A program made the position numbers and the translations under genes. Under the pieces are notes generated by a model. That model did no database searches. It was not told the origin of the DNA and was given only the letters and a program-made list of their open reading frames with translations. A DNA stretch of 64,000 nt, from IMG/VR virus record IMGVR_UViG_3300021420_000014. One strand, written 5' to 3'. Origin of the DNA: a virus. Each line of letters starts with the position of its first letter. The stretch's first letter is position 1. Shown here one piece after another: positions 2,715 through 20,174 of the stretch.

Positions 2715-3166
2715 ATTTCAATCTCAATAGTTCGAATGGTTTGGACGAAACAGTTTTCTTTCCTGTTCCCTCGGCTGGCTCAAGCGCGAACCTCTCTTGG
2801 CCTTTTGACGCCACCGCTGGCGGATCGAGCGTCACAATTCCGATTACCACAACAGTCCCTGTAGGTAACGGCATTATCGTTAATCCACAACCCAGTCTCG
2901 GTCCCAGAATGTGCGAGCCCGACCTGCCGTTTCGCGAGATTAATCGGCTACTTGAAAACGGGATGATCAGCAGAAACGAAGTGCGCAGATTGCTCGGACT
3001 CGAGCCACAGCCGGATGTAGCGGATGTGTCGGATGCCCGAGAGACGAGCGAGCGTAGACTGCAAGAATGGGTCGATGCCTTTAGCCGCGATCACCGACGC
3101 GAAAAACCACCGAAAAAAGAACCTATGTTTGAAGCCAAGCCGAAACGGATCATCTACTTTGAATAA
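2711..3166 (+). CDS. hypothetical protein
   Basis: coupled ORF with GMISRNEVRRLLGL motif resembling portal C-termini. Confidence 0.5.
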   Translation: MNFNLNSSNGLDETVFFPVPSAGSSANLSWPFDATAGGSSVTIPITTTVPVGNGIIVNPQPSLGPRMCEPDLPFREINRLLENGMISRNEVRRLLGLEPQPDVADVSDARETSERRLQEWVDAFSRDHRREKPPKKEPMFEAKPKRIIYFE

Positions 3167-3680
3167 TATTCAACCTATCGTACAGTATGGCAATCGATTG
3201 CTCGAATCGCCGGTTGCCTCAGTCGTAAAATTTAATCTCGATCTCGCCACGCTATGCGATCAAATGTTTGTCACTATGTATGCGAATCATGGTGTTGGTC
3301 TTGCCGCACCGCAGGTTGGCATCAACTTGCGCCTAGCTATCATCGATATCTCGACCAGCCACGCCCTTGCCGATCACATCATTCTCGTCAATCCAGAGCT
3401 GGTAGCGATTAGCGGTGAAGAAGTAAATGAGCCGGAAGGCTGCTTGTCTTTACCTGGAGTGCGTGCGAATGTCAAACGTCCGCAGAGCGTAACGGTCAAA
3501 GCGCAGAACATCACGGGAGACACTTTTGAGATTGCTGGCGACGGATTGCTGGCTCGAGCCTTGTGCCATGAGATTGATCACCTAAACGGCATTTTATTTC
3601 TCCGCCATCTCGGCCGATTGCGACGCGAGCTCATTCTCAAACATTTGCGCAAAACGCGAAGACCTGCAGCGTTTCACTAA
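3159..3680 (+). CDS. def: peptide deformylase
   Basis: GVGLAAPQVG, EGCLSLP, HEIDHLNG motifs; TTG start inferred. Confidence 0.92.
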   Translation: MNNIQPIVQYGNRLLESPVASVVKFNLDLATLCDQMFVTMYANHGVGLAAPQVGINLRLAIIDISTSHALADHIILVNPELVAISGEEVNEPEGCLSLPGVRANVKRPQSVTVKAQNITGDTFEIAGDGLLARALCHEIDHLNGILFLRHLGRLRRELILKHLRKTRRPAAFH

Positions 3681-3732
3681 TGTGAACATCGCCGCACGGT
3701 TTAACGGCACTATCTGAGATGAAGGCGAATCT

Positions 3733-4107
3733 ATGAATCGCACCTTACGAGCTGTGCAAGCTGTCGAAACCCCAGGCGATAAAGAGCCGCTAGTTCTAAG
3801 AACGCGCCCATGTCCAAAATGCGGCCAAGTCGCCGTTTTGCTGAATCGCATAGGCTCGGGACCGCATCAGTGGGGCTGCGGTCATTGCGGTTGGACGGAA
3901 ACCACCGCAAGAGAATTGACGCCGCGGGAAATAGAGATCACGAAATTACTCTGTGAAGGGCTTACCTGTAAAGAGTTGTCCGCATCTTTAGGATGCTCGG
4001 TAAAAACGATTGAGACGCATCGCGCCAATATCATGCATAAATTAAAACTTCACAATATCGTCGGGCTTTTACGATTGGCAGTAAAGAATCGGTTGATCAA
4101 TCTGTAA
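3733..4107 (+). CDS. Zn-ribbon + LuxR-type HTH regulator
   Basis: CPKC..CGHC then LTPREIEI..SVKTIETHRANIMHKL. Confidence 0.85.
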   Translation: MNRTLRAVQAVETPGDKEPLVLRTRPCPKCGQVAVLLNRIGSGPHQWGCGHCGWTETTARELTPREIEITKLLCEGLTCKELSASLGCSVKTIETHRANIMHKLKLHNIVGLLRLAVKNRLINL

Positions 4108-4335: not shown

Positions 4336-4883
4336 TGGAACGCGAGCCGCAGAACGGCAGGACGCATGAGCCGGATCTCCGCGAGGTGGTCGCGGACCTT
4401 GACGGTCTAAGGGAATTGCTAGACGAGAAGAGTGCGAATCTGTTGCGGGTAATGGACGAGCGTGATACTCGCTACGAGCAACGATTTACGGCGATGGATG
4501 AGAAGACCAGTCTCGCACTAACCGCTAGCGAAAAGGCAGTCACTAAAGCGGAGACCGCTACTGAAAAGCGTTTCGATGCAGTGAACGAATTCCGCGGCAG
4601 CTTGAAGGACCAGGCGGATACCCTCTACCCGCGCACCGAAGCTGAAACAAAGTTCCGGTCCTACGACGAAAAAATGGACGACATGAAGAAAGAGATCTCG
4701 GCGCTGCGCGAGTACAAGAGCGAATCCACCGGCAAGGCTGTCGTGAGTGAAAAGAATTATGACGTGGAACGCCTGCAAAAAAGCACGAACATCGCGACCA
4801 CGATTGCCGCAGTAGCGGCAGTGGCCTCGGTGTGTGGAGTCATTATCGCGCTCATTGTCTTACTGCTGAGAGCTCATGGATAG
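4335..4883 (+). CDS. coiled-coil protein with C-terminal TM helix (possible lysis accessory)
   Basis: AAGGAG RBS, heptad-rich body, hydrophobic C-terminus. Confidence 0.6.
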   Translation: MEREPQNGRTHEPDLREVVADLDGLRELLDEKSANLLRVMDERDTRYEQRFTAMDEKTSLALTASEKAVTKAETATEKRFDAVNEFRGSLKDQADTLYPRTEAETKFRSYDEKMDDMKKEISALREYKSESTGKAVVSEKNYDVERLQKSTNIATTIAAVAAVASVCGVIIALIVLLLRAHG

Positions 4884-4891
4884 GAGGAACC

Positions 4892-4933
4892 ATGCCACTT
4901 ATCAACGTGATCGTCATCCTGATCGGAGCCTAG
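4892..4933 (+). pseudogene. truncated 5' copy of the 5640 membrane protein gene
   Basis: AGGAGG RBS then MPLINVIVILIGA* vs MPLINIVIVLIVIG at 5640. Confidence 0.6.
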
Positions 4934-4938
4934 CCATC

Positions 4939-5649
4939 GTGATAGTGGTCTACTGTGTGTCCAATACTCACAACGGCAAGTGCTACATCGGCCAGACTTC
5001 GCAACCATTGATGACGAGATGGAACCATCATCTCTGGAACGCTGAGAAAGGTAAGGACACACGCTTTTACAGAGCCATTCGCAAATATGGCCGTGACACC
5101 TTTAGCATAGTCCAGTTACGTCAATGCGAATCTCGCCACGAATCAGACACCTTCGAAAAATATTTCATCTACTTCTTCAACAGTTATGATTTTGCTTACG
5201 GATACAACGGAACACTCGGAGGAGATGGCGGCGTACCGACCGAGGAGACAAGGGCCAAGATATCGCGCGCGAAGAAGGGAAAGAAGTTGTCGCCGCAGCG
5301 CATAGCGCAAATGAGCCTTAGTCGAATTGGAAAGAAGCACTCTGCTGAAACTCGCATAAAAATTGCTGAAGGCCAAAGGAAGCCGGACGTTGTAGCTAAG
5401 AAACATCTCGCACTCTCAGGCAAGCCCAAAACAGCGGAACATCGCAGGAATATAGGCAAAGCTTTGAAAGGACGTATAATTTCCGCCGAAGCTCGCGAGA
5501 AGTTACGGCTTGCCAATACAGGGAAGAAACAATCTGCGGAGTCGCGTGCGAAGATGTCTTTGGCTCACACAGGAATGAAAGAATCACAAGAAACCAAAAA
5601 CAAAAAATCAATAGCTGCCCAAAAAGTGGAGGCGCGAACATGCCGCTGA
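4939..5649 (+). CDS. GIY-YIG homing endonuclease with NUMOD3 repeats
   Basis: VVYCVSNTHNGKCYIGQT, GYNGTLGG, repeated HSAETRxKIS. Confidence 0.88.
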   Translation: MIVVYCVSNTHNGKCYIGQTSQPLMTRWNHHLWNAEKGKDTRFYRAIRKYGRDTFSIVQLRQCESRHESDTFEKYFIYFFNSYDFAYGYNGTLGGDGGVPTEETRAKISRAKKGKKLSPQRIAQMSLSRIGKKHSAETRIKIAEGQRKPDVVAKKHLALSGKPKTAEHRRNIGKALKGRIISAEAREKLRLANTGKKQSAESRAKMSLAHTGMKESQETKNKKSIAAQKVEARTCR

Positions 5650-5843
5650 TAAACATAGTCATAGTTCTGATTGTGATCGGAGTCCTACTTTATTTAGTTA
5701 ACACTTTTATCCCGATGGATGGGCGCATTAAGAACATTCTCAATGTGGTAATCATCATCGCTGTAGTCATCTGGCTGCTAAGCATATTTTTAGGCGGCGA
5801 TTGGGGATCGCTTGGCGGAATCAGAGTTGGACACCATCGATGA
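5640..5843 (+). CDS. small two-TM membrane protein (Thivi_2564-like)
   Basis: LIVIGVLLYLVNTFIPMDGRIKNILNVV pattern. Confidence 0.75.
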   Translation: MPLINIVIVLIVIGVLLYLVNTFIPMDGRIKNILNVVIIIAVVIWLLSIFLGGDWGSLGGIRVGHHR

Positions 5844-6283
5844 GTGTTGACTTTACATGGATAACGGAACGGCTCGCGACGGGAGCCCAAATAACTTCGA
5901 AGGACGACATCACGACACTCATTCAGGCTGGCATCACTCATATCATTGACATGCGTGCCGAGTATAACGACGGAATCCTTGATGATGCACGAGTCATACT
6001 CTTATGGCTTCCGCAGCAAGACGATGGCACGCCGCGGGATCCTACTCAGGTAAGGCTAGGAATAACTTTCGCATTAGGCGTCGCGTTATCGAAGGTCGGC
6101 AATCGCGTGCTCTGTCATTGCGCGGCCGGCATGAACAGGGGCCCATTGCAAACCTTTGCGATTCTCAGAGCTATGGGTCTTCCGCAACAGGAAGCGATTG
6201 ATCGGATCCGCACCAAAAGACCGCAGGTCGACTTCTACAATCATCCAAACTACATCAGCTCGGTGGAAGCTGCATTGGTTTGA
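5840..6283 (+). CDS. dual-specificity protein phosphatase
   Basis: HCAAGMNRG (CX5R) P-loop. Confidence 0.88.
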   Translation: MSVDFTWITERLATGAQITSKDDITTLIQAGITHIIDMRAEYNDGILDDARVILLWLPQQDDGTPRDPTQVRLGITFALGVALSKVGNRVLCHCAAGMNRGPLQTFAILRAMGLPQQEAIDRIRTKRPQVDFYNHPNYISSVEAALV

Positions 6284-7139: not shown

Positions 7140-7711
7140 TCATCCCATTTCCCAAGGATCCGCCATCGACGCCAGAAGTTGCCAGCGGTCTGCACATCGA
7201 AAAGCATCATCGCCCGGATTCCTGTACACACGAAAATGTAACGATCAATGTTCAGGCAGCCACGCTCAAGTGTGAAGACTGTGGTGCCTATCTTGATGCT
7301 TTTGCTTACATGGTCGAGTGGTCGAGAAAAAAGGAATATTGGCAACGCTGTCAGGAGGAACGCGAGCAGCACCAACTCGATCACGTGCAGGAAACCAAAG
7401 CGGCCGCGCTCGAGGCCTGTGAGTTCTATAAGATCACGCCAGAGGAATACGCGGCTTGGTGGAAACAGAAGCCATGTCGTGAAAAAGCGCGTGAAGAGTT
7501 AAAGGCTCGTTACGATCGCATGGTCGAGCTTCATAGCACGGACGGCTGTACTCCCGAAACGATGTACGTTATCAGCAACAGAAAAGATTGGTTTGAGCTA
7601 TGGTGCTATGTGTGCGGAGGGATGAGCGGGAGAACTTCGCTGCCACCTGAATTCAGCGGAGCATTGATTCATCGCCATCGAGACCGCATCTTCCAAAAAA
7701 TAAAACGCTAA
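7136..7711 (+). CDS. hypothetical Zn-binding protein
   Basis: CTH..CEDC, CYVC motifs; coupled ORF. Confidence 0.55.
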   Translation: MIIPFPKDPPSTPEVASGLHIEKHHRPDSCTHENVTINVQAATLKCEDCGAYLDAFAYMVEWSRKKEYWQRCQEEREQHQLDHVQETKAAALEACEFYKITPEEYAAWWKQKPCREKAREELKARYDRMVELHSTDGCTPETMYVISNRKDWFELWCYVCGGMSGRTSLPPEFSGALIHRHRDRIFQKIKR

Positions 7712-7717
7712 TTCCAT

Positions 7718-7751
7718 TTGACATTTGCGCCGCAGAGTAGTAAACGCTTAC
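7718..7751 (+). promoter_or_regulatory. sigma70-like promoter (TTGACA) with operator GTAAACGCTTAC
   Basis: TTGACA 7718-7723; motif 7741-7750. Confidence 0.65.
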
Positions 7752-7753
7752 GT

Positions 7754-7854
7754 GATGCCGCTTGCCGTAGGATAAACCTCGGGAAGATTGAACTAGGCGG
7801 CTCCAGCGGTTCAATATCGTGGGGAGGACTGGAGCGAAACCACCAAGCGGCGTC
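7754..7854 (+). ncRNA. structured leader RNA with predicted pseudoknot
   Basis: 11-bp closing stem, inner stems, GCTCCAG/CTGGAGC cross-pairing. Confidence 0.5.
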
Positions 7855-7877
7855 TTAATTCAAAAAGGGAGGATCGA

Positions 7878-8102
7878 ATGAGCACTCTAAGCATTATCGA
7901 CTCTACTGGCGATACTCGGATCCAATGGGACAAGAGCAATGCCGATGAAGTGCAGGCGGCAAGGATAGCTTTTGCGGCGCAGAGAGCTAAGGGTTGGCCA
8001 GCTTTCCGCGTCAACAAAGCCGGCGACAAAGGTGAGCAGATCGATGCGTTTGATCCTGCGGCCGAACGAATCATATTCATACCCCAAATGATCGGCGGAT
8101 GA
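7878..8102 (+). CDS. small protein with C-terminal Gly-Gly (candidate ubiquitin-like modifier)
   Basis: 74 aa, GGGAGG RBS, ends IIFIPQMIGG*. Confidence 0.7.
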   Translation: MSTLSIIDSTGDTRIQWDKSNADEVQAARIAFAAQRAKGWPAFRVNKAGDKGEQIDAFDPAAERIIFIPQMIGG

Positions 8103-8497
8103 CCGTGGCTTCCAAGGTTCGCGAAATCTTCGGGAGGAAAAAGTGCATGTGTTTAGATTCAGGGCATTACTCGGTTGATCGAACCACGCTTGTTCAAAGC
8201 GGCTGGAAGGATTTTGGCACCGGCTCTGCCTTGAAGTTCCAAGCCTTCCAGTTAAACGGCAAAAAAGACGTCCCACTCGACAAATGGCTCACTGCCGAAG
8301 GCACGACCGTTTCCGGCAGCAATTATCCGGCTGGCTTCCATATCTATGTCAACGAAACAGAATTTAAGGGCAGTAAATACCGCCGCGTCTATTTTCGCAA
8401 CGCACATACTCATGGCACCCAAGACGGTAAAACGATTTTAGTCGCGCGTGAAATGTTTGTGCCGTCAAACCCTGACGACTGGCCGCCGAAGACCTGA
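8099..8497 (+). CDS. hypothetical protein
   Basis: ATGA-coupled to the GG protein; YPAGFH motif. Confidence 0.6.
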   Translation: MTVASKVREIFGRKKCMCLDSGHYSVDRTTLVQSGWKDFGTGSALKFQAFQLNGKKDVPLDKWLTAEGTTVSGSNYPAGFHIYVNETEFKGSKYRRVYFRNAHTHGTQDGKTILVAREMFVPSNPDDWPPKT

Positions 8498-8498
8498 G

Positions 8499-9239
8499 AT
8501 GAAAGTGGCGGCATGCAATGAATGGATTGTGTGCAAAGGGAAGCACTTCGATAAGTACGACGATTGGTATGAGTACAAGGCCTACAAAGCACTATGCCGG
8601 CACAAAAAATATCTTAAGGACGAACTGATGGGCAGCTACTATCCGTCAATCTTCAGCCAGTTGGGCAACATCACAAGTCTTGGCACGATCTCAAATGTGT
8701 ATTACTCGCAAATCGGGACACAGACGACAGCCAATTCCTACGGCGGGCTGATCTATCAAACATGGATTGCCGACGGCACAGCTACTACCACGATCAATAC
8801 GCAGCATTGGAACATTAACGGTCTTGGCGCAAATGTGTATCAAGCGTTTGATGTGGCAGTGAACGGAATGACCGTAAGCGGAACCGTTCGCGAACCAACG
8901 CCGGCAGAGCTTCAAAAGATGGAAGAAGACAAAAGACGACGCGATGCAGCTAGGCAACGTGCGCGCGATCTTCTTTGCTCGACCCTCACCGATCAACAGC
9001 GTGAGCAACTCCATAAAGAAAACGCCTTCGATCTCGAAGTCGCCGGCCGCATCTACCGTATTCGGCCTGGGCGTAAAGTGGAACGGCTGGCTTTGGACGG
9101 TAAGGCAGAAGCCTTATTCTGTATTCACCCCGATTTCTCTCATGGCCTTCCGGAAGATGACGTGGCACTCAGCCAGAAGCTTTTGCTTGAGGCTGATGAA
9201 GCGGCTTTCCTTCGGATCGCCAATAAGTTTGCGGCATGA
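8499..9239 (+). CDS. hypothetical protein with C-terminal CIHP...DD..L.QKL.LE.DE domain
   Basis: ORF; start uncertain. Confidence 0.65.
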   Translation: MKVAACNEWIVCKGKHFDKYDDWYEYKAYKALCRHKKYLKDELMGSYYPSIFSQLGNITSLGTISNVYYSQIGTQTTANSYGGLIYQTWIADGTATTTINTQHWNINGLGANVYQAFDVAVNGMTVSGTVREPTPAELQKMEEDKRRRDAARQRARDLLCSTLTDQQREQLHKENAFDLEVAGRIYRIRPGRKVERLALDGKAEALFCIHPDFSHGLPEDDVALSQKLLLEADEAAFLRIANKFAA

Positions 9240-9439
9240 GCGAACTAAAAATTGCTTACGAGCTTGCACTTGAAAAGATGGATGCTCGTGAGCCAATTCC
9301 TTACAGGCGTCTATAACGGAAAGATGTGGAGAAGGGCCAGCGAGTACGTGCAAAACCCACGATTCTGGTGGCTAATGTGGTATGGCCCTCATCCCGATCC
9401 TGACAAGGTCTCAATCAACTCCAGAAAGATTCTGGTGGT

Positions 9440-10189
9440 GTGATGCAAGAGTTCGTTTGCAAGATCGATGAGGCAGCGCAAGACGAGCCGGATATTCCAG
9501 AGCCGGCATTCATCAAGAAAGTAATCGACACTGCCGAGTCGCTTGCTCGCGAAGTAATCGAAGCCCGCGAAATCATCACTCTTGGCCTTTACCACATCAT
9601 CCTTAGAAAAGACTTCAGCAATCCTGGGTGTCTTTTGGCCTACGCCTGTAAAACACCATCACGGAGAAAGAGAGTTACCATGGACGTTGATCAGATGGTA
9701 GAGACATGGCTGCCGCTCATCAAGAAACTCGCCTGCGCGCATGACGTGGACGAAAAAGATGCGGCGAGCTCCGAGTTGGACGAGCACATTGCGCCTATCC
9801 TTGCCGCGCCCATCGTGCAAATACGCGAGTTCTATCGCACGCTTACCGGACGTCTGAAGTCGGATCCATCCGTGCCCTGGGCCGTCTGGCGGCTGTTTGA
9901 GTTTTGGGGCGAGAGCGTGCTCGATAAGATTCACGGCGAAGAAGTGCACGGACTCAAGAAGGAACTGGCCAGCGGGATTGCCGACCGTGCCATTGAAGAG
10001 TTGCCGCGTCTCGATTGGCGCGAGGCTATGATCGGCGCGCTCATGTGGCGGTCGCCCGAGAAACTGAAAGAGATTGCCGAAAAACTCGACGCCGGCGAGA
10101 AGCCGCGGCTCAAAGGAAAACAATCATGCCTATTTCTCGTAGTCGGCGAAGCTAGCCAAGACGGCAAGCAAGTCGAAGTGATGTTGTGA
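9440..10189 (+). CDS. hypothetical protein
   Basis: long ORF; true start may be internal. Confidence 0.55.
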   Translation: MMQEFVCKIDEAAQDEPDIPEPAFIKKVIDTAESLAREVIEAREIITLGLYHIILRKDFSNPGCLLAYACKTPSRRKRVTMDVDQMVETWLPLIKKLACAHDVDEKDAASSELDEHIAPILAAPIVQIREFYRTLTGRLKSDPSVPWAVWRLFEFWGESVLDKIHGEEVHGLKKELASGIADRAIEELPRLDWREAMIGALMWRSPEKLKEIAEKLDAGEKPRLKGKQSCLFLVVGEASQDGKQVEVML

Positions 10190-11090: not shown

Positions 11091-14000
11091 ATGGCAAAGC
11101 GCGGCGATCTGATCATCAAGCCCATCAGCCAGATGGTCGATGCCATCGCTCACTACGGGCAGTCGCTATTTCAGCCGCCTCAAGAAACAATTCGTGGCAT
11201 TAAGCAAGATTCTTGGTGGTCTCCGCTCCAGCCGATTCAGCCGTTTGCACCTCCAGGCCAGGAGCCATCAGCATTTCAATGGTGGCCAGGTCAAAACCTG
11301 TGGTGGACCCCGCGTGCGGACGCTGAGTATAGCGCAGCAGACCTCAAGCAGCTCGCCACTTATCCACTTGCACGAATTTGCATTGAGAACGTCAAAGACG
11401 CAGTGACTAGGGCCCCGTGGGAGATCCAGCTCCGCGAAAGGCCGAACGAAACAAGAACTGCGAGGCTGGCGCGTGCAAAAGGCGACGAAAATATTCTGAA
11501 GCTCAATCGCTTCTGGGAATATCCAGACCGTGAACACAACTGGCAGGAATGGGTGCGACCGCTGCTCGATGATTTGCTCGTTATCGATGCGCCGAGCATC
11601 CTGCTCAGAAAAAACTACCGCGGCGAGCTTGCGGAACTCGCTGTTCTTCGAGGCGAAATGATAACTCGCCTAATAGACCAGAATGGATTTACACCAGTGC
11701 CACCTAGTCCCGCCTACTATCAAAACTGGTGGGGCTTGCCTCAAGTTCTGTTAACTACAGATCAACTTGTGTATAAGCCACGCAGCATAGTGCCACGAAA
11801 TTCACTAGCCTCCCAACTTTACGGTATGTGCTTTGATGACGAAACTGAGATTTTGACGCGCCGTGGTTGGTTGCGCTTTAAAGATACCAATCAGCAGGAT
11901 GAATTTGCGACGAGACAGATAAATACAGGCATCTTCGAATGGCAGAAAGCTACAAACTTTACGGCCCGTCCATACGATGGCGAGATGCTGCATTTTGAGA
12001 ATCGAAGCCTAGATCTGCTCGTCACTCCCAATCACCGAATGTTGGTCGATTCATTGCCGCGCGCGCTGGGCAAGGGCAAACCACAGCCTAAAAGGGAATT
12101 TGTAATTGAAGCAGATGCGCTCGCAGAGGTCTATTCCGGTCGCACCGGAATTCCGCAATGGTCCGTGTGGAATGGCGTGGAGATAACTGAGAAGATTTTC
12201 AAATCATCTGTTAAGAGAAGCGGTCCAGATCCGATAGAAGTACGGATGACTGGCGATCAATACTGTGCGTTCATGGGCATGTATTTAGCCGAAGGTTCAA
12301 TTCGGCGGCGATCCATACAAATAGCACAAAAACATGACAAGCGTGGCAGTTATGAACTATATCGACGACTCCTGATTGAACTCCTAGGTTCGCAGCCATG
12401 TTATTCAGGTCACCAGTTTGAATTTCAGCGGCGAGTATTAGCTGATTTCTTGCGACAGTTTGGCCACGCAGACACCAAATTCATCCCAGATGATATCCGT
12501 GGAGCTACGCAACGGCAGCTTGAAATCTTTTGGAAATACTATAATGCTGGAGACGGACGTAACAATTCTACGCCGCAAGTGTTCACCGTCAGTAAGAAAC
12601 TGGCGGATCAGCTCACCGAAATAATTCAAAAGATGGGTTCGGCACCAACAGTTTGGACAAGAACACCGCGCATTGCAAAATTTCCAGATAATCGTAAATA
12701 CAAGTCTCGCATGGGTTGGCTCATTACGAGACGTCCTGCCATTAATACAAAAGGCTGGAAGGCTACCCGCGTTGCCTATAAAGGCTGGATATATTGCGTT
12801 ACCGTTCCGAATGGTTTTGTGTACGTTCGTCGCAATGGGAAGGCAGCGTTCTCAGGCAACTCTCCTACTGAACAGATAGCTGAAGAGATTATGGTAGGAG
12901 TTTCACGCCTTAGATTCGTCAGGGCCTATTATGAAGAGGGCTCGGTCCCTGGCGTTGTTCAAGTTGTTCCGCGCGGCACGTCTCCTGAGCGCATCACCGA
13001 AGCGATGTCATGGATGAACTCGGAACTGGCAGGTAATCTTGCTGCACGCCGGCAGTGGCGGCTAGTGCAAGGTTTCAACGAACCAGGTAAAGAAGATCAA
13101 ATCATCTTTTCTAAAGAGCCTTTACTTACCGACATATATGACGAAAAGCATATTCGCGAAGTTGCCTACGCATACGGCGTCAGTCCACAGCGTCTGATGA
13201 AAATGATCCGCACCGAAGGAAAGTCTTCTGCCGATGCTGCAGAAGTAGAAGGTACGCTGCCGTGGGTGCTCTGGGTAAAAGGAATTGTCGATTTTATCCT
13301 CCAGCGAAAGATGGGCTTCATGGATTACGAGATGGCGATCAATCCCTACGCGGAGCCTGATCCGCTCAAAAACGCCGCCGCCATCACCATGTACGTCAAA
13401 GGCGGCGTAATGACGCCGAACGAAGCGCGCAAGCGAGTAGGAGAAGAATTGAGGCCTGAGCCGGAAGCTGATCGTCTTGGCGTAATCACCGGACAAGGCT
13501 TCGTTCCGATCGGCGTCGCCTCTGTTGTCGCTGGCGTACAGATTGATGACAAAGGGAATCCTAAACCGCATTCCGTAGTTCCCACACAGCCTCCGGAACC
13601 ACCACAAAATGGCACTAACGGAAAAGCTCGCGATCATAATGCGGCGCGTGTAGGGACGCCGACTTCTCAGGAGGCTGGTGGCGGCCGGTCGACTGGGCGC
13701 AATGTAGGCGTGGACAACGGAAAAGAATCACTCGACGGCGCGAAAATTAAAAAAAAACTCGAAAAACGGCTCGCATCGCGTATTGATCCGGACGTATTAA
13801 CTCCGCAATCACGGCAGTCTGTGCACGCGATTCAAGACGCGGTGCACAAAGTTTTGATGCGCCAGCAAGACCGCGCCCGCCTGGAAACTGACCGGCTCGC
13901 CAAGACGCTCGGCAATATCTTAACGAAGCGAAAACTCGGAAATGTACACTTCAATCTCTCGCCGCCGGATGCGCAGAGAGTGCTGGCGATACCGATCGAC

Positions 14001-14456
14001 GGTCAACACTTCGCAGCAAAAGGCCGCGACATGCAACCGCATGTGACCGTCCTATTCGGTTTTCATCCCGATGTTTCCGTTGACCAGATCAATGCCATCA
14101 CCAAAGGCATCGGCAACATTGACGCGAAGGTCGGACCGTTCGAGGCTTTTAGTGAAGGCGAGGATGGTGTTCCGCTTGTCATGCGCGTCGAAAGTGAAAA
14201 ACTGCGCAAGCTGAACGCGGATCTTAAGGTGTTGCCGCATCACGAGACATGGCCGGACTACAAGCCTCATGTTTGTGTGGCTTATTTGAAGCCGAACGTC
14301 GCACAGACCTATCTTGATCGAGGCAATCCCCTCGAGGGCCAGACTTTTACGCTATCTCATCTCGTCCATGCTGGCGTCGACTACACCGTGCGGGATCTTG
14401 AAAAGCTGACGCTGCCAAGCGAACGCATCAAGCGTATGGAGATGATGAAAAAATAA
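11091..14456 (+). CDS. phage portal protein with intein and C-terminal 2H phosphoesterase domain
   Basis: portal motifs (YGxSP split by intein, AYGVSPQRL, GVMTPNEAR); HVTV and HVCV motifs near C-terminus. Confidence 0.88.
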   Translation: MAKRGDLIIKPISQMVDAIAHYGQSLFQPPQETIRGIKQDSWWSPLQPIQPFAPPGQEPSAFQWWPGQNLWWTPRADAEYSAADLKQLATYPLARICIENVKDAVTRAPWEIQLRERPNETRTARLARAKGDENILKLNRFWEYPDREHNWQEWVRPLLDDLLVIDAPSILLRKNYRGELAELAVLRGEMITRLIDQNGFTPVPPSPAYYQNWWGLPQVLLTTDQLVYKPRSIVPRNSLASQLYGMCFDDETEILTRRGWLRFKDTNQQDEFATRQINTGIFEWQKATNFTARPYDGEMLHFENRSLDLLVTPNHRMLVDSLPRALGKGKPQPKREFVIEADALAEVYSGRTGIPQWSVWNGVEITEKIFKSSVKRSGPDPIEVRMTGDQYCAFMGMYLAEGSIRRRSIQIAQKHDKRGSYELYRRLLIELLGSQPCYSGHQFEFQRRVLADFLRQFGHADTKFIPDDIRGATQRQLEIFWKYYNAGDGRNNSTPQVFTVSKKLADQLTEIIQKMGSAPTVWTRTPRIAKFPDNRKYKSRMGWLITRRPAINTKGWKATRVAYKGWIYCVTVPNGFVYVRRNGKAAFSGNSPTEQIAEEIMVGVSRLRFVRAYYEEGSVPGVVQVVPRGTSPERITEAMSWMNSELAGNLAARRQWRLVQGFNEPGKEDQIIFSKEPLLTDIYDEKHIREVAYAYGVSPQRLMKMIRTEGKSSADAAEVEGTLPWVLWVKGIVDFILQRKMGFMDYEMAINPYAEPDPLKNAAAITMYVKGGVMTPNEARKRVGEELRPEPEADRLGVITGQGFVPIGVASVVAGVQIDDKGNPKPHSVVPTQPPEPPQNGTNGKARDHNAARVGTPTSQEAGGGRSTGRNVGVDNGKESLDGAKIKKKLEKRLASRIDPDVLTPQSRQSVHAIQDAVHKVLMRQQDRARLETDRLAKTLGNILTKRKLGNVHFNLSPPDAQRVLAIPIDGQHFAAKGRDMQPHVTVLFGFHPDVSVDQINAITKGIGNIDAKVGPFEAFSEGEDGVPLVMRVESEKLRKLNADLKVLPHHETWPDYKPHVCVAYLKPNVAQTYLDRGNPLEGQTFTLSHLVHAGVDYTVRDLEKLTLPSERIKRMEMMKK
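11829..12860 (+). mobile_element. intein with LAGLIDADG endonuclease (344 aa)
   Basis: N-term CFDDETEILT, block B VTPNHRM, C-term YCVTVPNG..RRNGKAAFSGN followed by Ser; GMYLAEG and YNAGDG motifs. Confidence 0.92.
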
Positions 14457-15337
14457 TGCCATATTCTGATGATGGGCACGACGTTCCAAAATATGTAACC
14501 GGTGGCGACAAGAAGAGACGCAAGTGGTCGCACGTCTGGAATTCCGAATATAAGCGACAAAAAGGTAAAGGCAAATCTGACAAGGAAGCCGAACAGATCG
14601 CCTTCGCCTCGGCGAATTCCGTAGCGAGCAAGACAGTCGAAGCTAGATTCGCGAAGCTGCTTTCCAAAGCTTCTAATGAGGAAGCTGAACAGTTTGCCGT
14701 TGCAGTCATCGCCGCACTCGAAGAAGAGGCTCGATCTTTACCTAGCCAGATTCGAGGCCCGCTTGAATCGGCGATGACGTCTGGTATCGGCGAAGGTTTG
14801 ATGCAAATTGAAATCTCCGATTCAGGACTCATTAGTTCGGCAAATGAGATTGCCCAAAAGTACGCGTCCGAACGCGCTGCGGAACTGGTGGGCATGCGTT
14901 ACAACGATGAAGGTGAGCTCGTCGCAAATCCCAATGCAGAGTGGGCTATTTCCGATCACACTCGCAATCGGATCCGTGAGATCATCTCCGAATCTTTTAC
15001 CGAAGACACGCCGCTGCCTGACATTCAGGCATCTATCCGCGAAGCCTTACAAGAAGAAGCAGAGGATGTCGGTATCTTCAGCGAAGCTCGCGCTGCCATG
15101 ATTGCTCGCACTGAAGTAATGATGGCGCAGAATGGCGGCAATTACACTACCTGGGAAAAGTCAGGCGTCGTGAAAAAAGTGAAGTGGCTTACGTCAAATC
15201 TCGAACCATGCGAAGAGTGTGTAATCAATTCCACTAAGGAAATAACGATTGGTAAAATTTTTCCGTCCGGCCACAAAATGCCTCCTGCACATCCACGCTG
15301 TTCTTGCGTATTGACAGTCAGCAGAATCGCAGACTAA
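14456..15337 (+). CDS. head morphogenesis protein (Mu gpF/SPP1 gp7-like) with ChaB-like N-terminus
   Basis: RAAMIARTE, KWLT..CEEC, PPAHPRCSC. Confidence 0.85.
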   Translation: MPYSDDGHDVPKYVTGGDKKRRKWSHVWNSEYKRQKGKGKSDKEAEQIAFASANSVASKTVEARFAKLLSKASNEEAEQFAVAVIAALEEEARSLPSQIRGPLESAMTSGIGEGLMQIEISDSGLISSANEIAQKYASERAAELVGMRYNDEGELVANPNAEWAISDHTRNRIREIISESFTEDTPLPDIQASIREALQEEAEDVGIFSEARAAMIARTEVMMAQNGGNYTTWEKSGVVKKVKWLTSNLEPCEECVINSTKEITIGKIFPSGHKMPPAHPRCSCVLTVSRIAD

Positions 15338-15396
15338 ACTACAGCGTTTTCAAATCAGTGGCGGAAGAATCCGCTGCGAACAAGGAGAATCCTAGT

Positions 15397-16572
15397 ATGC
15401 CTACCGCTTTAACTCGTGAATCCATTTTTTCTTGTGTTAGTGACGAAACTCTTGGCTTTCAGTTTGGCAAACCAGATCGGCCTAGCGACACTTCTCTGGC
15501 TTGCATCCTTCCTATCCTTCGCGAAACTGCACAGAAGCGGCAGTACGTAACCCTGCCTGAGGCTGGAGATAAGGTCGTGATATCCGACTCCGGCTCCATA
15601 AACAAGGTGATGCTAAAAAATACATCCGAAGAAAACGTGTTCGTTCGCTCCGGTTCTATCTTCGGCGGCAAAGGCACGCAATCCCGAGCACTGATGCGTT
15701 CGGCGGTTTTATTCGCCGGTCAGGAAGTTGGCTTGGAAGTTCGTTGCGTTCATGCTTCCCACCATATTAGCAAAGGATCCGCGTTTCAGTACGATGGCGT
15801 GACACCACTTGAAGTCGACAACCAGTTCTACCAGGACGGCTACCGGCCTTCTGATCAAAGCACCATGTGGAATTTGGTGAAGAGTACGAACACAACAATG
15901 AGCTACATGATTGGAGACAGTGGCCCGGAGATGAAAATACCGCGCCATCGCGAACGCAGTCTAGGAAATCAACCTCGCCGCAGTTTCATTTCGGATCCAA
16001 CCGTTCGCCGATGGGGCCCGTCACTGAGAGCCGCTGGCATGCGTACAGAAGCGAAGGGACATGGACGTGGCAACTTTAATTTCGACAGAGGAGCATTTTT
16101 CACATCCCATTTGGCTGATGAGACGAATGCTTTCACTGGCGACGATGATCTCCGCAATAACTTCGACGCCTTCGCGAAAAACTTTGACTCCATCCTCTCA
16201 AAGGCAAGACTCCACGATCATCAAGTTGGACTTGCGCTCATCACCGAACGGGGAGCCCAGACAATTGAATTGTTCGACTTAGATACTTCCTGGGAAGCTA
16301 TGCACAAAGATGCCGTGAAGCGCATGGGCACGGAACTGTTACGCGGACCTGATGAAACCAATGTATTCGAATACAAGCCGGACCGTGCCGTCGCTGCGGT
16401 ACGTGCGGTTTTGGCGTTGCCATTCACGCAAAATGTAATCTACGAACACAAGCCGTCGAACGGTGAGCCCTATGTCGCCGTAACTGGCTTAACGGCAAAG
16501 GATTGGGTGGGCGAGCTCGCCGAAATCGATTTGCGCGTTATTCACATGACTTTGCTGCGAAAGGCCTCTTGA
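15397..16572 (+). CDS. ARPP-1/DUF6569-like domain protein
   Basis: ISDSGSINKVMLKN..GSIFGG..QSRAL..VRCV..QSTMWN pattern. Confidence 0.6.
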   Translation: MPTALTRESIFSCVSDETLGFQFGKPDRPSDTSLACILPILRETAQKRQYVTLPEAGDKVVISDSGSINKVMLKNTSEENVFVRSGSIFGGKGTQSRALMRSAVLFAGQEVGLEVRCVHASHHISKGSAFQYDGVTPLEVDNQFYQDGYRPSDQSTMWNLVKSTNTTMSYMIGDSGPEMKIPRHRERSLGNQPRRSFISDPTVRRWGPSLRAAGMRTEAKGHGRGNFNFDRGAFFTSHLADETNAFTGDDDLRNNFDAFAKNFDSILSKARLHDHQVGLALITERGAQTIELFDLDTSWEAMHKDAVKRMGTELLRGPDETNVFEYKPDRAVAAVRAVLALPFTQNVIYEHKPSNGEPYVAVTGLTAKDWVGELAEIDLRVIHMTLLRKAS

Positions 16573-18383: not shown

Positions 18384-20174
18384 ATGTCAAGAGTTAAACC
18401 TGGAGTAAAATTTGTCGCAGTTGTTTTTGCAGTAGCAGTTCTCACACTCCTTCTCATCGAGGGCGAACACACAGGGATAATTCCTACGCCTGGCATCCTG
18501 AAGTCTGTCATTCCGCAGCGTGTCGTGTTACCCGACGTAAAAGATGCTCAGGTTCAGAATGTTGCACCAGCGCCGTTGCCATCGGACGGCTGCGCCAAGA
18601 TTCAGGCGACGCAAATTCGTGGCGAAGTGTGGGAATGGAACGCGCAAGCCGGTCTAATCTTCGCTAACGGCGGTGCTTGCACGACCGCTGGCTCGCTGAT
18701 GGCAAAGCATGGCGTGAATCTCGTGCTCACCCGCCAAGACAAGACCGATCAAATGCAGAACGATTTGATCGCCTGCGCCGATGAACTATATGGCGGGGCA
18801 ACGCAATGTACGAGCGGCGCTAACTTCGTCGTAATCATGGGCGGCGGCGTCGGACAGTTTGTGGCTGGTCCGGATTCCCTGCTTGCCAAGCACGGCCAGG
18901 AATATTCGCTAAAGATGATCGCAGGAATTGGCTTTTCGTATGGCGAGGATGGCTTGTTGGCTCCGCCAGAAATTAAGAGCAACCCGCAGGCGGCGCGTGG
19001 CCTGCTCTTTGCCGGCGTGATTCGCGACGACGATTGGAACATTGCGCAAAAATGGGCTGGCGACAATAGCGTTCCGACAAATCCGGATGAGAACACCTAC
19101 GATCCCGACGCGGTCAACTGGTTGAATGCGGAGGACTATATTAAAGCGACAGAGCTTTACAACGCCAATACATGCGTCGAACGCAAGGTAGTGAAAGATG
19201 GTCACCCGACCGGCCAGACAAAAAACGTCTGCGTAAGCGGAATCGTGACCTGGACCCCTGGCGACGTGAACGAAGCACACGGCAAGGGTGGACTGGTGAA
19301 GATCGTTTCAACAAAACAGTACATCATGCCCGCTGTTATCGTCGGCCCGAATGTTTTCTTCCAGCGGAATCGCGACGAGATTGAAAACATGCTTGCCGCG
19401 ACGTTTGAGGCAGGCGACCAAATGAAGGCTTTTGATCTGTCGCTGCACAAGGCGATGGCTATCTCGGCGAAGCTCTACAAAGATCAAGATGAATCCTATT
19501 GGTATAAATATTTCAAGGGGGCTCGCGAGCGCGATACCCAGGGCCAGATGATTGATCTTGGCGGCTCAAAGGTAAGCAACTTGGCAGATGCTTTGAACCT
19601 TGTTGGCCTCGTGCCAGGAACAAATGACGCGCTGCGTTCTGTCTACACCATCTTTCGGAATATCGATTTGCAGCAATACCCCGATCTATTCAAGAGCACG
19701 CCGATCCCCGAAGCGGCTGCGGTCGAAGACAAGTCTTTCATAACCGGCGCACAGGCCAAGATGGAAGATCCAGGTTCAACAGTCCAGCCTGTAAACTATT
19801 TTGCCGCTGCCGATGCGCCAGTCGTAAGCAAACGCTCTTACTCCATAAATTTCGACACTGGCCGCGCTACGTTCACGCCAGCGGGAGAGCAAACGATGCA
19901 AGACTTGCGTGATTCGCTTGCCGCGACGGCGCTATTTATCAAAGTTGACGGCTATACGGATGACACTGGAAGCGATCAAGTCAACTCAGCACTGTCGCAA
20001 GCTCGCGCGCAGGCTGTGAAGTCCTGGTTGCAAGCGAAGGCGCGAAATACGTTTCCTGATTCGCGATTCGCGGTTGCCGGACACGGTGCGCGTGATCCAG
20101 TAGCGTCGAATGCAACTGCAGAAGGCAAGGCGGCAAATCGGCGGGTTGAAATAACTCTTAGTGGAGGCAACTGA
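18384..20174 (+). CDS. ABC substrate-binding-like protein with C-terminal OmpA peptidoglycan-binding domain
   Basis: N-term anchor; GYTDDTGS..NSALSQARAQAV..NRRVEI. Confidence 0.85.
   Translation: MSRVKPGVKFVAVVFAVAVLTLLLIEGEHTGIIPTPGILKSVIPQRVVLPDVKDAQVQNVAPAPLPSDGCAKIQATQIRGEVWEWNAQAGLIFANGGACTTAGSLMAKHGVNLVLTRQDKTDQMQNDLIACADELYGGATQCTSGANFVVIMGGGVGQFVAGPDSLLAKHGQEYSLKMIAGIGFSYGEDGLLAPPEIKSNPQAARGLLFAGVIRDDDWNIAQKWAGDNSVPTNPDENTYDPDAVNWLNAEDYIKATELYNANTCVERKVVKDGHPTGQTKNVCVSGIVTWTPGDVNEAHGKGGLVKIVSTKQYIMPAVIVGPNVFFQRNRDEIENMLAATFEAGDQMKAFDLSLHKAMAISAKLYKDQDESYWYKYFKGARERDTQGQMIDLGGSKVSNLADALNLVGLVPGTNDALRSVYTIFRNIDLQQYPDLFKSTPIPEAAAVEDKSFITGAQAKMEDPGSTVQPVNYFAAADAPVVSKRSYSINFDTGRATFTPAGEQTMQDLRDSLAATALFIKVDGYTDDTGSDQVNSALSQARAQAVKSWLQAKARNTFPDSRFAVAGHGARDPVASNATAEGKAANRRVEITLSGGN

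Follow-up and report, generated by a model that had tools for sequence, protein, structure and literature searches.

A large uncultured phage (IMG/VR record IMGVR_UViG_3300021420_000014) encodes a small protein ending in Gly-Gly, predicted to be ubiquitin-like, together with a partner protein that carries one invariant cysteine in a predicted E2/RWD-like domain, and the pair may represent an undescribed minimal protein-tagging module. The two genes, referred to here as g1 and g3, lie in a 64,000-nucleotide stretch (the window) of a complete genome of 164,879 bp in which no ThiF-type E1 activating enzyme was found. Table 1 presents an overview of the features of the locus. An earlier note, made from the sequence alone, had drawn attention to g1 as a 74-residue protein with a beta-beta-alpha-beta pattern and a C-terminal Gly-Gly, and to a Cys-His-Pro protein two genes on, and this observation is confirmed. 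The note's interpretation, an undescribed modifier/ligase pair that may borrow a host ThiF/MoeB E1 or act as a decoy against bacterial Ubl-based antiphage systems, is partly supported.

Table 1. Features of the g1-g3 locus (positions in the window)
Feature	Position	Strand	Description
Inverted repeat	7754-7764 / 7844-7854		Long-range, 11 nt
Ribosome-binding site	7867-7872	+	GGGAGG (Shine-Dalgarno), 5 nt before the g1 ATG
g1	7878-8102	+	74 aa, ending ...IIFIPQMIGG; predicted beta-grasp-like with a flexible C-terminal tail; Gly73-Gly74 (GGC GGA) at 8094-8099, followed by TGA
g2	8147-8497	+	116 aa, optional insert; GGAGG 9 nt before the ATG at 8147; can also be read from the ATG at 8099
g3	8499-9239	+	246 aa from the ATG at 8499; carries FCIHP and ...LPEDDVALSQKLLLEADE
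g3 N-terminal half	8499-8909	+	Residues 1-137; poorly conserved, rich in Thr, Trp, Tyr and Asn
g3 C-terminal domain	8910-9239	+	Residues 138-246; charged helix plus a predicted UBC/RWD-like alpha-beta4-alpha domain
Cys208-Ile-His210-Pro211	9120-9131	+	TGT ATT CAC CCC, at the end of strand 4; predicted docking site of the g1 tail
Asp221	9159-9161	+	In the loop before helix 3

The g1 family comprises 1206 clusters at 50% identity, mostly viral and always C-terminal, and GG ends 128 of the best 150 relatives, while most of the others end in GG plus one to six residues. Both glycines are invariant in a broad alignment of the family (A2), and among 43 non-redundant loci, 41 of the g1 proteins end in GG. 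In 40 of 40 non-redundant loci with enough downstream DNA, g1 is followed by a g3 relative, and in 31 of 41 cases the gap between the two is -8 to +4 nt. No other neighbor is conserved. Across 58 partner domains, the Cys and the Asp are retained in all 58, a Gln in 57, the His in 52 and the Pro in 48. The His and Pro of the Cys-His-Pro described in the earlier note are therefore not invariant, whereas Asp221 is. These features are far beyond chance. The related loci were recovered with narrow alignments, whereas the single protein used as query found no viral relatives.

Conservation of the GG and the Cys, linkage of the genes, a beta-grasp-like model for g1 and docking of its tail at the Cys had been named in advance as points on which the proposal could fail, and each came out in favor of the pair, although both fold matches are weak. 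The g1 model (pLDDT 88, falling to about 60 in the tail) has strands at residues 2-8 and 11-17, a helix at 22-37 and strands at 42-45, 53-55 and 64-67, which is the order of strands and helix in ubiquitin. Nearly all of its structural neighbors are beta-grasp proteins, among them protein L/G, Raf RBD, UFM1, MoaD, TtuB, Mth1743 and SUMO, but the scores are low (VIA Z 3.3-5.5; Foldseek E of 0.019 at best and TM 0.30-0.46). The g3 C-terminal domain was modeled with high confidence (pLDDT 96, pTM 0.85) as an N-terminal helix, a four-strand antiparallel meander and C-terminal helices. An exhaustive structural search with this model was led by Ubc9 (Z 5.3, 82 residues, 3.3 A), followed by GCN2 and other RWD domains (Z 5.0, 4.9, 4.2 and 4.0), UEV domains, a chain of the Fanconi anaemia core complex (7kzp_L), a bacterial E2 (8tyz_C), UBE2F, E2S and Ube2W. 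Since all of these Z-scores fall below 8, the level regarded as clear, both folds are suggestive only. Foldseek returned no match in the PDB for g3, and a second comparison with VIA of Foldseek's own list was uninformative (maximum Z 3.8). The ESM Atlas model of the whole g3 protein has low confidence (pLDDT 0.57), and searches of the Atlas returned only unnamed clusters, including 145-residue look-alikes of the g3 domain at TM 0.9.

At the level of sequence, no model in Pfam, PHROGs, NCBIfam or PADLOC matched g1, g2 or g3. In Pfam there was no hit for g1 or for 105 of its relatives at E <= 0.1, and no UQ_con, Prok-E2 or RWD hit for 41 g3 domain sequences at the same cut-off. Profile searches of PDB sequences gave only noise for g1 and nothing for g3 at E <= 10. 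Prok-E2_B, sought as the basis for a profile comparison of g3 with prokaryotic E2 families, was not found in 201 sampled genomes and gave no signal in any control genome. A tblastn search of 50,697 deposited phage records found no hit for g3 and a single one for g1, in the metagenome-derived Virus Rctr197k, where a g3-like gene also follows.

When g1 and the g3 domain were co-folded, the predicted complex reached an ipSAE of 0.81, against 0.08 for the best of three controls. That mark was reached by 58 of 80 solved complexes and by 2 of 110 mismatched pairs, counts which hold only roughly because our own alignments were used. The runs agree in at least 92% of contacts, the partner pLDDT is at least 87, and the interface is large, with 88-97 contacts. 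It includes residues 71-76 and 84 of the domain, corresponding to the Cys-x-His-Pro segment and Asp221, and residues 68-74 of g1. Domain residues 71-76 touch g1 residues 71-72 with an error under 1.1 A; g1 residues 71-72 touch domain residues 72-74, while Cys208 (domain residue 71) and g1 residues 73-74 are in the interface list. In this prediction, the hydrophobic strand-3/strand-5 face of g1 packs on helix 3 of the g3 domain, and the free Gly-Gly tail lies in a groove against Cys208 and Asp221.

Taken together, g1 and g3 may be the two halves of a self-contained phage module of the ubiquitin-like/E2-like type, a reading that is tentative. What the analysis itself provides is the conservation, the linkage and, as predictions, the ubiquitin-sized beta-grasp-type g1 and its docking on g3; the chemistry is inferred, as no covalent bond, whether thioester or conjugate, can be shown in silico. 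In this view, the Cys would attack the C-terminal Gly of g1 to form an acyl (thioester) intermediate, and g1 would then be handed to an amino group on g3 itself or on an as yet unidentified target chosen by the hypervariable N-terminal half of g3. Across 58 relatives, that half contains 12.9% Thr, 4.3% Trp and 5.7% Tyr, against 4.2, 1.1 and 2.4% in the C-terminal part. Activation would not use a phage E1. No ThiF-type E1 was found in this complete genome or, above cut-off, in 39 other carrier records, 13 of them at least 90% complete, and no Prok-JAB was found in this genome, to which the JAB search was confined. The absence of an E1 or JAB gene, noted earlier for the window, thus holds for the whole genome. 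Activation could instead rely on a host MoeB/ThiF-type adenylase, which cannot be excluded but remains a guess, or on E1-independent, protease-like Cys/His chemistry.

The latter route, which the earlier note did not consider, has a precedent in E2-only CBASS, where a stand-alone bacterial E2 is reported to form a thioester with a C-terminal Gly without an E1, using Cys plus His, and to trim residues after the Gly (bioRxiv 10.1101/2022.05.25.493364). Both are two-protein systems without an E1 in which a flexible tail ending in a conserved Gly is inserted, here by prediction, into an E2-type domain next to a Cys with a nearby His. In E2-only CBASS, however, the tail belongs to a nucleotidyltransferase (cGAS/CD-NTase) rather than to a Ubl, the E2 is a recognizable homolog with its Cys at the canonical site, and the system serves host defense; the phage module shows no sequence similarity to it, has no conserved CD-NTase or effector neighbor and gives no PADLOC hit. 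In addition, most g1 proteins end exactly at GG, so a protease-type activation would have no leaving group. The catalytic arrangement of canonical E2s is also missing from g3. In those enzymes, His-Pro-Asn follows strand 4 and the active Cys lies about 8-10 residues later, whereas in g3 the invariant Cys lies two residues before the His-Pro, there is no Asn after the Pro, and Asp221 sits, by inference, roughly where the catalytic Cys would be.

The loop that holds the E2 active site is short in g3, which is closer to the non-catalytic RWD form and leads to the main alternative, namely that the pair is a purely non-covalent, obligate heterodimer. Under this possible but less likely reading, g3 would be a coiled-coil plus RWD-like adaptor, as in kinetochore RWD proteins and the Cys-less E2-like domains of bacterial Ubl operons, that simply holds a Ubl-like subunit, with GG and Cys conserved for packing in a tight groove and the actual function carried by the variable N-terminal half or by fused enzyme domains. 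RWD domains match over more of the model (about 90 residues) than Ubc9 does, the His-Pro...Leu-Pro loop resembles the RWD YPxxxP turn, and one relative (locus L030) has the same domain fused to a calcineurin-like phosphoesterase, as expected of an adaptor. RWD-like inactive E2 domains have already been proposed to bind Ub-like moieties (Iyer et al. 2006, PMC1779556), and the large predicted interface is in keeping with this view. Against it, absolute invariance of one Cys and one Asp over 58 diverged domains (31-62% identity to the window's domain within the domain alignment A4) is unusual for mere packing, and GG at the extreme terminus, with short C-terminal extensions in a minority, is the signature of activated termini.

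Those extensions, as in locus L007, would need trimming and could also suggest that g3 is a Cys-His-Asp hydrolase (a peptidase, a deconjugase or a toxin-like enzyme) with g1 as its substrate, product or built-in inhibitor. The conserved Cys, His and Asp lie in the predicted tail-binding groove, the small-gene-then-larger-gene arrangement with overlapping stops and starts resembles toxin-antitoxin pairs, and the E2 of E2-only CBASS has protease activity. Nonetheless, this reading is very doubtful, since Cys and His are only two residues apart on one strand, unlike known Cys-protease folds, there are no structural hits to peptidases, and the His is dispensable in 6 of 58 domains.

Equally doubtful is a role for g1 as a MoaD/ThiS-like sulfur carrier that would be adenylated and thiocarboxylated by host enzymes, with g3 accepting or relaying sulfur through its Cys. 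A weak profile match to MoaD-type proteins is centered on a near-identical hydrophobic-PP-x-x-GG tail (hhalign score 21.9, probability 27%, P 6.6e-4, against a maximum of 16.9 in 40 column shuffles), and size, predicted fold type and a predicted tail-in-pocket complex with the partner are shared with the MoaD/ThiS carriers. The nearest named Atlas cluster is ThiS-like, but at a score of 0.76, which counts as chance level. The Pfam ThiS model (PF02597) does not hit g1, no E1, rhodanese-type or cofactor/thiolation genes are linked, the g3 fold is not that of MoaE, ThiG or TtuA, and no phage need for such a pathway is apparent.

Two further systems bear comparison with the module. Bacterial Ubl operons (PMC1779556; later named Bil and Bub) encode, as predicted here for g1 and g3, a small beta-grasp protein with a C-terminal Gly beside an E2-fold protein, and some use RWD-like E2 domains thought to bind the Ubl; however, they always include an E1-like adenylase and usually a JAB peptidase. 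The tail assembly protein I of lambda/T1 is a phage-encoded Ubl-type domain with a conserved C-terminal Gly and a dedicated neighboring partner, TAPK (JAB + NlpC/P60) (PMC1779556). There the partner is a pair of peptidases in the tail gene cluster and the Ubl is fused to another domain, whereas here the partner is a predicted E2/RWD-like domain and the neighbors vary and are not tail genes. Since g3 lies upstream of the portal in this phage, a small terminase was also considered, but this was rejected because the neighbors of the module differ from phage to phage.

Like other counter-defense genes, the module moves between unrelated genomic neighborhoods, and the pair could be an anti-defense mimic in which g1 and/or g3 imitate the Ubl or tail and the E2 of bacterial immune systems (Bil, Bub, type II or E2-only CBASS), soaking up the E1/E2 or capping the CD-NTase C-terminus of hosts yet to be identified. 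Host systems of this kind do rely on a C-terminal Gly and an E2 Cys, and the family is mostly viral. The portal of this phage carries an Acb1-like 2H phosphoesterase domain, and one carrier has an Acb2/Tad1-hairpin gene about 0.5 kb downstream. This reading, which includes the decoy role guessed at earlier, is unlikely: a pair of mimics has no obvious need to bind each other, yet the co-fold is confident and the conserved residues map to the mutual interface, and no sequence similarity to Bil or Cap2 components was found, with no hit in PADLOC.

Ubiquitin-type tagging in bacteria has only recently been tied to phage defense, and the known systems carry an E1. If the tagging reading is real, it would show that viruses of bacteria also use this kind of protein modification, and it would offer the smallest known Ubl-E2 pair for studying how a thioester can form without an activating enzyme; it might also reveal a new layer of phage-host conflict or a compact protein-ligation tool. 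In its boldest and rather unlikely form, a miniature E2/RWD-like domain with a Cys(-His)-Asp site would both activate and transfer the Ubl without any E1, the N-terminal half of the same protein would act as a built-in target selector, and the system would be widespread in uncultured soil and sediment phages (over 1000 sequence clusters), tagging host or phage proteins during infection. If the pair only binds non-covalently, it is still a large, uncharacterized phage protein family with a confident predicted complex.

The earlier description of the locus as an operator-controlled operon is not supported. No sigma-70-like promoter passed a scan of positions 7400-9600, and no repeated operator was found, only the single inverted repeat listed in Table 1. 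The partner is two genes on only in the window and in six other loci (L001, L004, L008, L009, L010 and L012) that carry the g2 insert; elsewhere it is the very next gene. In a set of 5.8 billion proteins, g2 forms only four clusters, and it appears to be an accessory gene present in a minority of phages. Its N-terminus, Met-Cys-Leu, is conserved in relatives.

The positions of the genes and other features described in this part are collected in the table below. The three co-directional genes g1, g2 and g3 belong to a complete 164,879-bp virus record with direct terminal repeats. Downstream of them lie an ASCH-like gene (a weak, sub-threshold Pfam match), an HNH endonuclease gene, a portal gene and a Mu-F-like head gene. 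The earlier note had drawn attention to a small protein ending in Gly-Gly that is followed two genes on by a protein with a Cys-His-Pro segment, and this observation is confirmed.

Positions of features in the window and in related loci (L, locus of another carrier of the gene pair)
Locus	Position	Strand	Feature
Window	3024-3680		Peptide deformylase (E 6e-48)
Window	4876-5649		GIY-YIG/NUMOD3 homing endonuclease
Window	5801-6283		Dual-specificity-phosphatase-like protein (sub-threshold Pfam match)
Window	7754-7764 and 7844-7854		11-nt inverted repeat in the leader before g1, 91% complementary, 79 nt apart
Window	7878-8102	+	g1, 74 aa ending ...IIFIPQMIGG; GGGAGG ribosome-binding site 5 nt upstream of the ATG
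Window	8099 or 8147 to 8497	+	g2, 132 or 116 aa
Window	8499-9239	+	g3, 246 aa, ending in a domain carrying FCIHP...LPEDDVALSQKLLLEADE
Window	11091-14456	+	Portal-like protein, 1121 aa
Window	15304-16572		ARPP-1 domain protein
Window	18384-20174		596-aa protein with a C-terminal OmpA domain
L004	4645-4998		g2 relative
L008	6224-6667		g2 relative
L010	4192-4608		g2 relative
L012	6218-6643		g2 relative
L005	6186-6401		Gene with the Acb2/Tad1 hairpin domain, about 0.5 kb downstream of the g1-g3 pair
L030	6749-8104		Second g3-like domain fused to a calcineurin-like metallophosphoesterase
L032	7911-9441		Distant g1 relative ending in Pro-Gly, followed by a g3 relative
L049 (KX853510)	2803-4055		Distant g1 relative ending in Pro-Gly, followed by a g3 relative

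g1 belongs to a large and uncharted family. While a word-indexed search returned only one relative, at 57% identity and also ending in GG, an exhaustive HMMER search found 1206 cluster representatives at E <= 1e-3 and 147 at E <= 1e-10. In nearly all of the best 150, the match runs to the last residue of the protein. Of these 150, 128 end in GG, most of the others have GG followed by 1-6 residues, and two carry a longer tail. In a 105-sequence alignment, only G73 and G74 are invariant. No Pfam, PHROG, NCBIfam or PADLOC model matches g1, nor does any PDB sequence. Look-alike clusters in the ESM Atlas are mostly viral. Among 50,697 deposited phage records, only one metagenome-derived virus carries a relative.

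To examine the genomic context of the family, contigs were retrieved for four database relatives, and two independent pattern scans of IMG/VR and one scan of prokaryote genomes were performed. HMMs of g1 and g3 were then run on all ORFs of these loci, yielding 43 non-redundant g1 loci. A g3 relative lies downstream in all 40 loci that have enough complete downstream DNA, and one further locus ends inside a g3-like N-terminus. In 31 of 41 cases the distance between the two genes is -8 to +4 nt. The distant pair in Virus Rctr197k has the same arrangement, and the two distant g1 relatives that end in Pro-Gly instead of Gly-Gly (L032 and L049) are both still followed by a g3 relative. All-against-all clustering of neighbouring genes found nothing else conserved. 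The pair sits among recombination genes in one phage, near RNA ligase in another, and before the terminase or portal in others. The middle gene, g2, is an accessory gene that is inserted between g1 and g3 in seven loci only, and its family comprises four clusters. It always starts Met-Cys-Leu and shares the motifs GWK, PLDKW, GFH and VPS-P--WPP. A conserved N-terminal Cys inside a putative Ubl-thioester module is intriguing, although there is no fold or family evidence.

The two parts of g3 differ in their conservation. The N-terminal half is variable in length, with a median of about 100 aa, and rich in Thr, Trp, Tyr and Asn, while the last ~110 residues are well conserved. Over 58 non-redundant domains, Cys208 and Asp221 are each kept in 58/58, Gln226 in 57/58, His210 in 52/58 and Pro211 in 48/58. 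In L032, the g3 His is replaced by Tyr. One phage (L030) has, next to g1 and a 144-aa domain-only g3, a second copy of the domain fused to a calcineurin-like phosphoesterase (Pfam Metallophos, E 5.8e-8).

The predicted structure of g1 (pLDDT 88) consists of strands 2-8 and 11-17, helix 22-37, and strands 42-45, 53-55 and 64-67, followed by a floppy seven-residue tail. Position for position, this is the layout of ubiquitin. Foldseek returned a list made up almost entirely of Ras-binding, ubiquitin, SUMO, NEDD8 and PB1 domains; however, E is at best 0.019 and TM is 0.30-0.46. A Foldseek-independent structural search and a second-look comparison gave protein L/G, PKD ULD, RnfH, Ddi1 UBL, MoaD, UFM1, TtuB and SUMO at Z 3.3-5.5. 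A MoaD/ThiS alignment assembled from 29 loci in a sample of 41 Acidobacteriota genomes gave a weak hhalign match to g1 (score 21.9, P 6.6e-4, probability 27%), whereas forty column shuffles reached 16.9 at most. The match aligns the helix, strand 3 and the shared hydrophobic-PP-x-x-GG tail. Taken together, g1 may be described as beta-grasp-like and possibly MoaD-related, but this is not proven. A sulfur-carrier pair is not excluded as an alternative.

For the C-terminal domain of g3, the model (pLDDT 96) contains two helices, a four-strand meander ending at Cys, a short loop, two helices and a last strand. An E2/RWD-type fold had been expected from this pattern before the structural search was run. 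While Foldseek found nothing, an exhaustive search placed Ubc9 first (Z 5.3, 82 aa, 3.3 A), followed by five RWD domains, two UEV domains, a chain of the Fanconi anaemia core complex (7kzp_L), a bacterial E2 from an E1-E2-Ubl complex, UBE2F, E2S and Ube2W. Since the scores are below the level regarded as clear for this method, the fold assignment is suggestive only. The Cys is not at the canonical E2 position, as it lies two residues before the His-Pro that follows strand 4, and the loop where E2s carry their Cys is short and holds the invariant Asp. In that respect, the domain looks more like an RWD domain with an added Cys. A purely non-covalent adaptor complex is not excluded.

Co-folding with alignments for both chains gave an ipSAE of 0.81 (runs 0.80, 0.81, 0.81) against 0.08 for the best of three controls. 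That mark was reached by 58 of 80 solved complexes and 2 of 110 mismatched pairs, although these counts hold only roughly because our own alignments were used. The runs agree in at least 92% of contacts, and the pLDDT of the partner is at least 87. In the predicted complex, the g1 face made of residues 41, 43, 66 and 68 packs on helix 3 of the domain (residues 87, 88, 91, 92 and 95), and the tail residues Met71 and Ile72 touch Ile-His-Pro (domain residues 72-74). Domain residues Cys71 and Asp84, which are Cys208 and Asp221 of the full-length protein, and Gly73-Gly74 of g1 are all in the interface list, without a distance from Gly to Cys being implied. The arrangement resembles that of closed E2~ubiquitin, but it is a prediction and not a measurement.

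A search for a ThiF-type E1 found none in the complete genome of this virus. ThiF is also absent from 39 other carrier records, 13 of them at least 90% complete, where the only match is one sub-threshold fragment containing stop codons. Prok-JAB is absent from the genome of this virus.

The best-supported reading is a Ubl/E2-like couple in which the invariant Cys would act on the C-terminal Gly of g1. The earlier note's interpretation of the two proteins as a minimal ubiquitin-like conjugation pair is supported only in part: our analysis establishes a real, large and uncharacterised module, whereas its covalent chemistry and any biological role are only proposed. Two routes may be considered for activation of the Gly. 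The first is E1-independent chemistry, for which a preprint on E2-only CBASS offers a direct functional precedent (10.1101/2022.05.25.493364). There, a stand-alone bacterial E2 with a Cys and a nearby His is reported to trim the residue after a C-terminal Gly and then to form a thioester and an isopeptide bond without any E1. This precedent fits the Cys-x-His motif and the minority of g1 proteins that have short extensions after GG. A rival reading of the pair, a hydrolase with its substrate or inhibitor, is not excluded. The second route is a host MoeB/ThiF-type adenylase, which the MoaD-like tail makes conceivable.

Among known systems, phage Ubl domains were described by Iyer et al. 2006 (PMC1779556) only in lambda-type tail protein I, where they are partnered with JAB/NlpC peptidases. 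In the bacterial Ubl operons described in the same work, an E1-like enzyme accompanies the E2-like protein. A literature search found no paper describing a phage Ubl plus E2-like pair.

An anti-defence mimic is a further reading of the pair that is not excluded. In the phage that carries L005, the nearby Acb2/Tad1 hairpin gene encodes a domain that acts as a sponge for immune nucleotide signals. In the window itself, the portal-like protein matches Phage_portal only in residues 578-783 and appears to carry a large insertion that begins like an intein (Cys-Phe-Asp-Asp-Glu-Thr...). It ends in a 2H phosphoesterase domain, with 2_5_RNA_ligase2 at 29.8 bits, above cut-off, and Acb1 anti-CBASS at 25.1 bits, just below cut-off. 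A portal fused to an Acb1-like domain would be unusual. The peptide deformylase, homing endonuclease, dual-specificity-phosphatase-like, ARPP-1 domain and OmpA domain entries in the table are other auxiliary genes of this phage. Upstream of g1, the inverted repeat in the leader is the closing stem of a candidate leader RNA.
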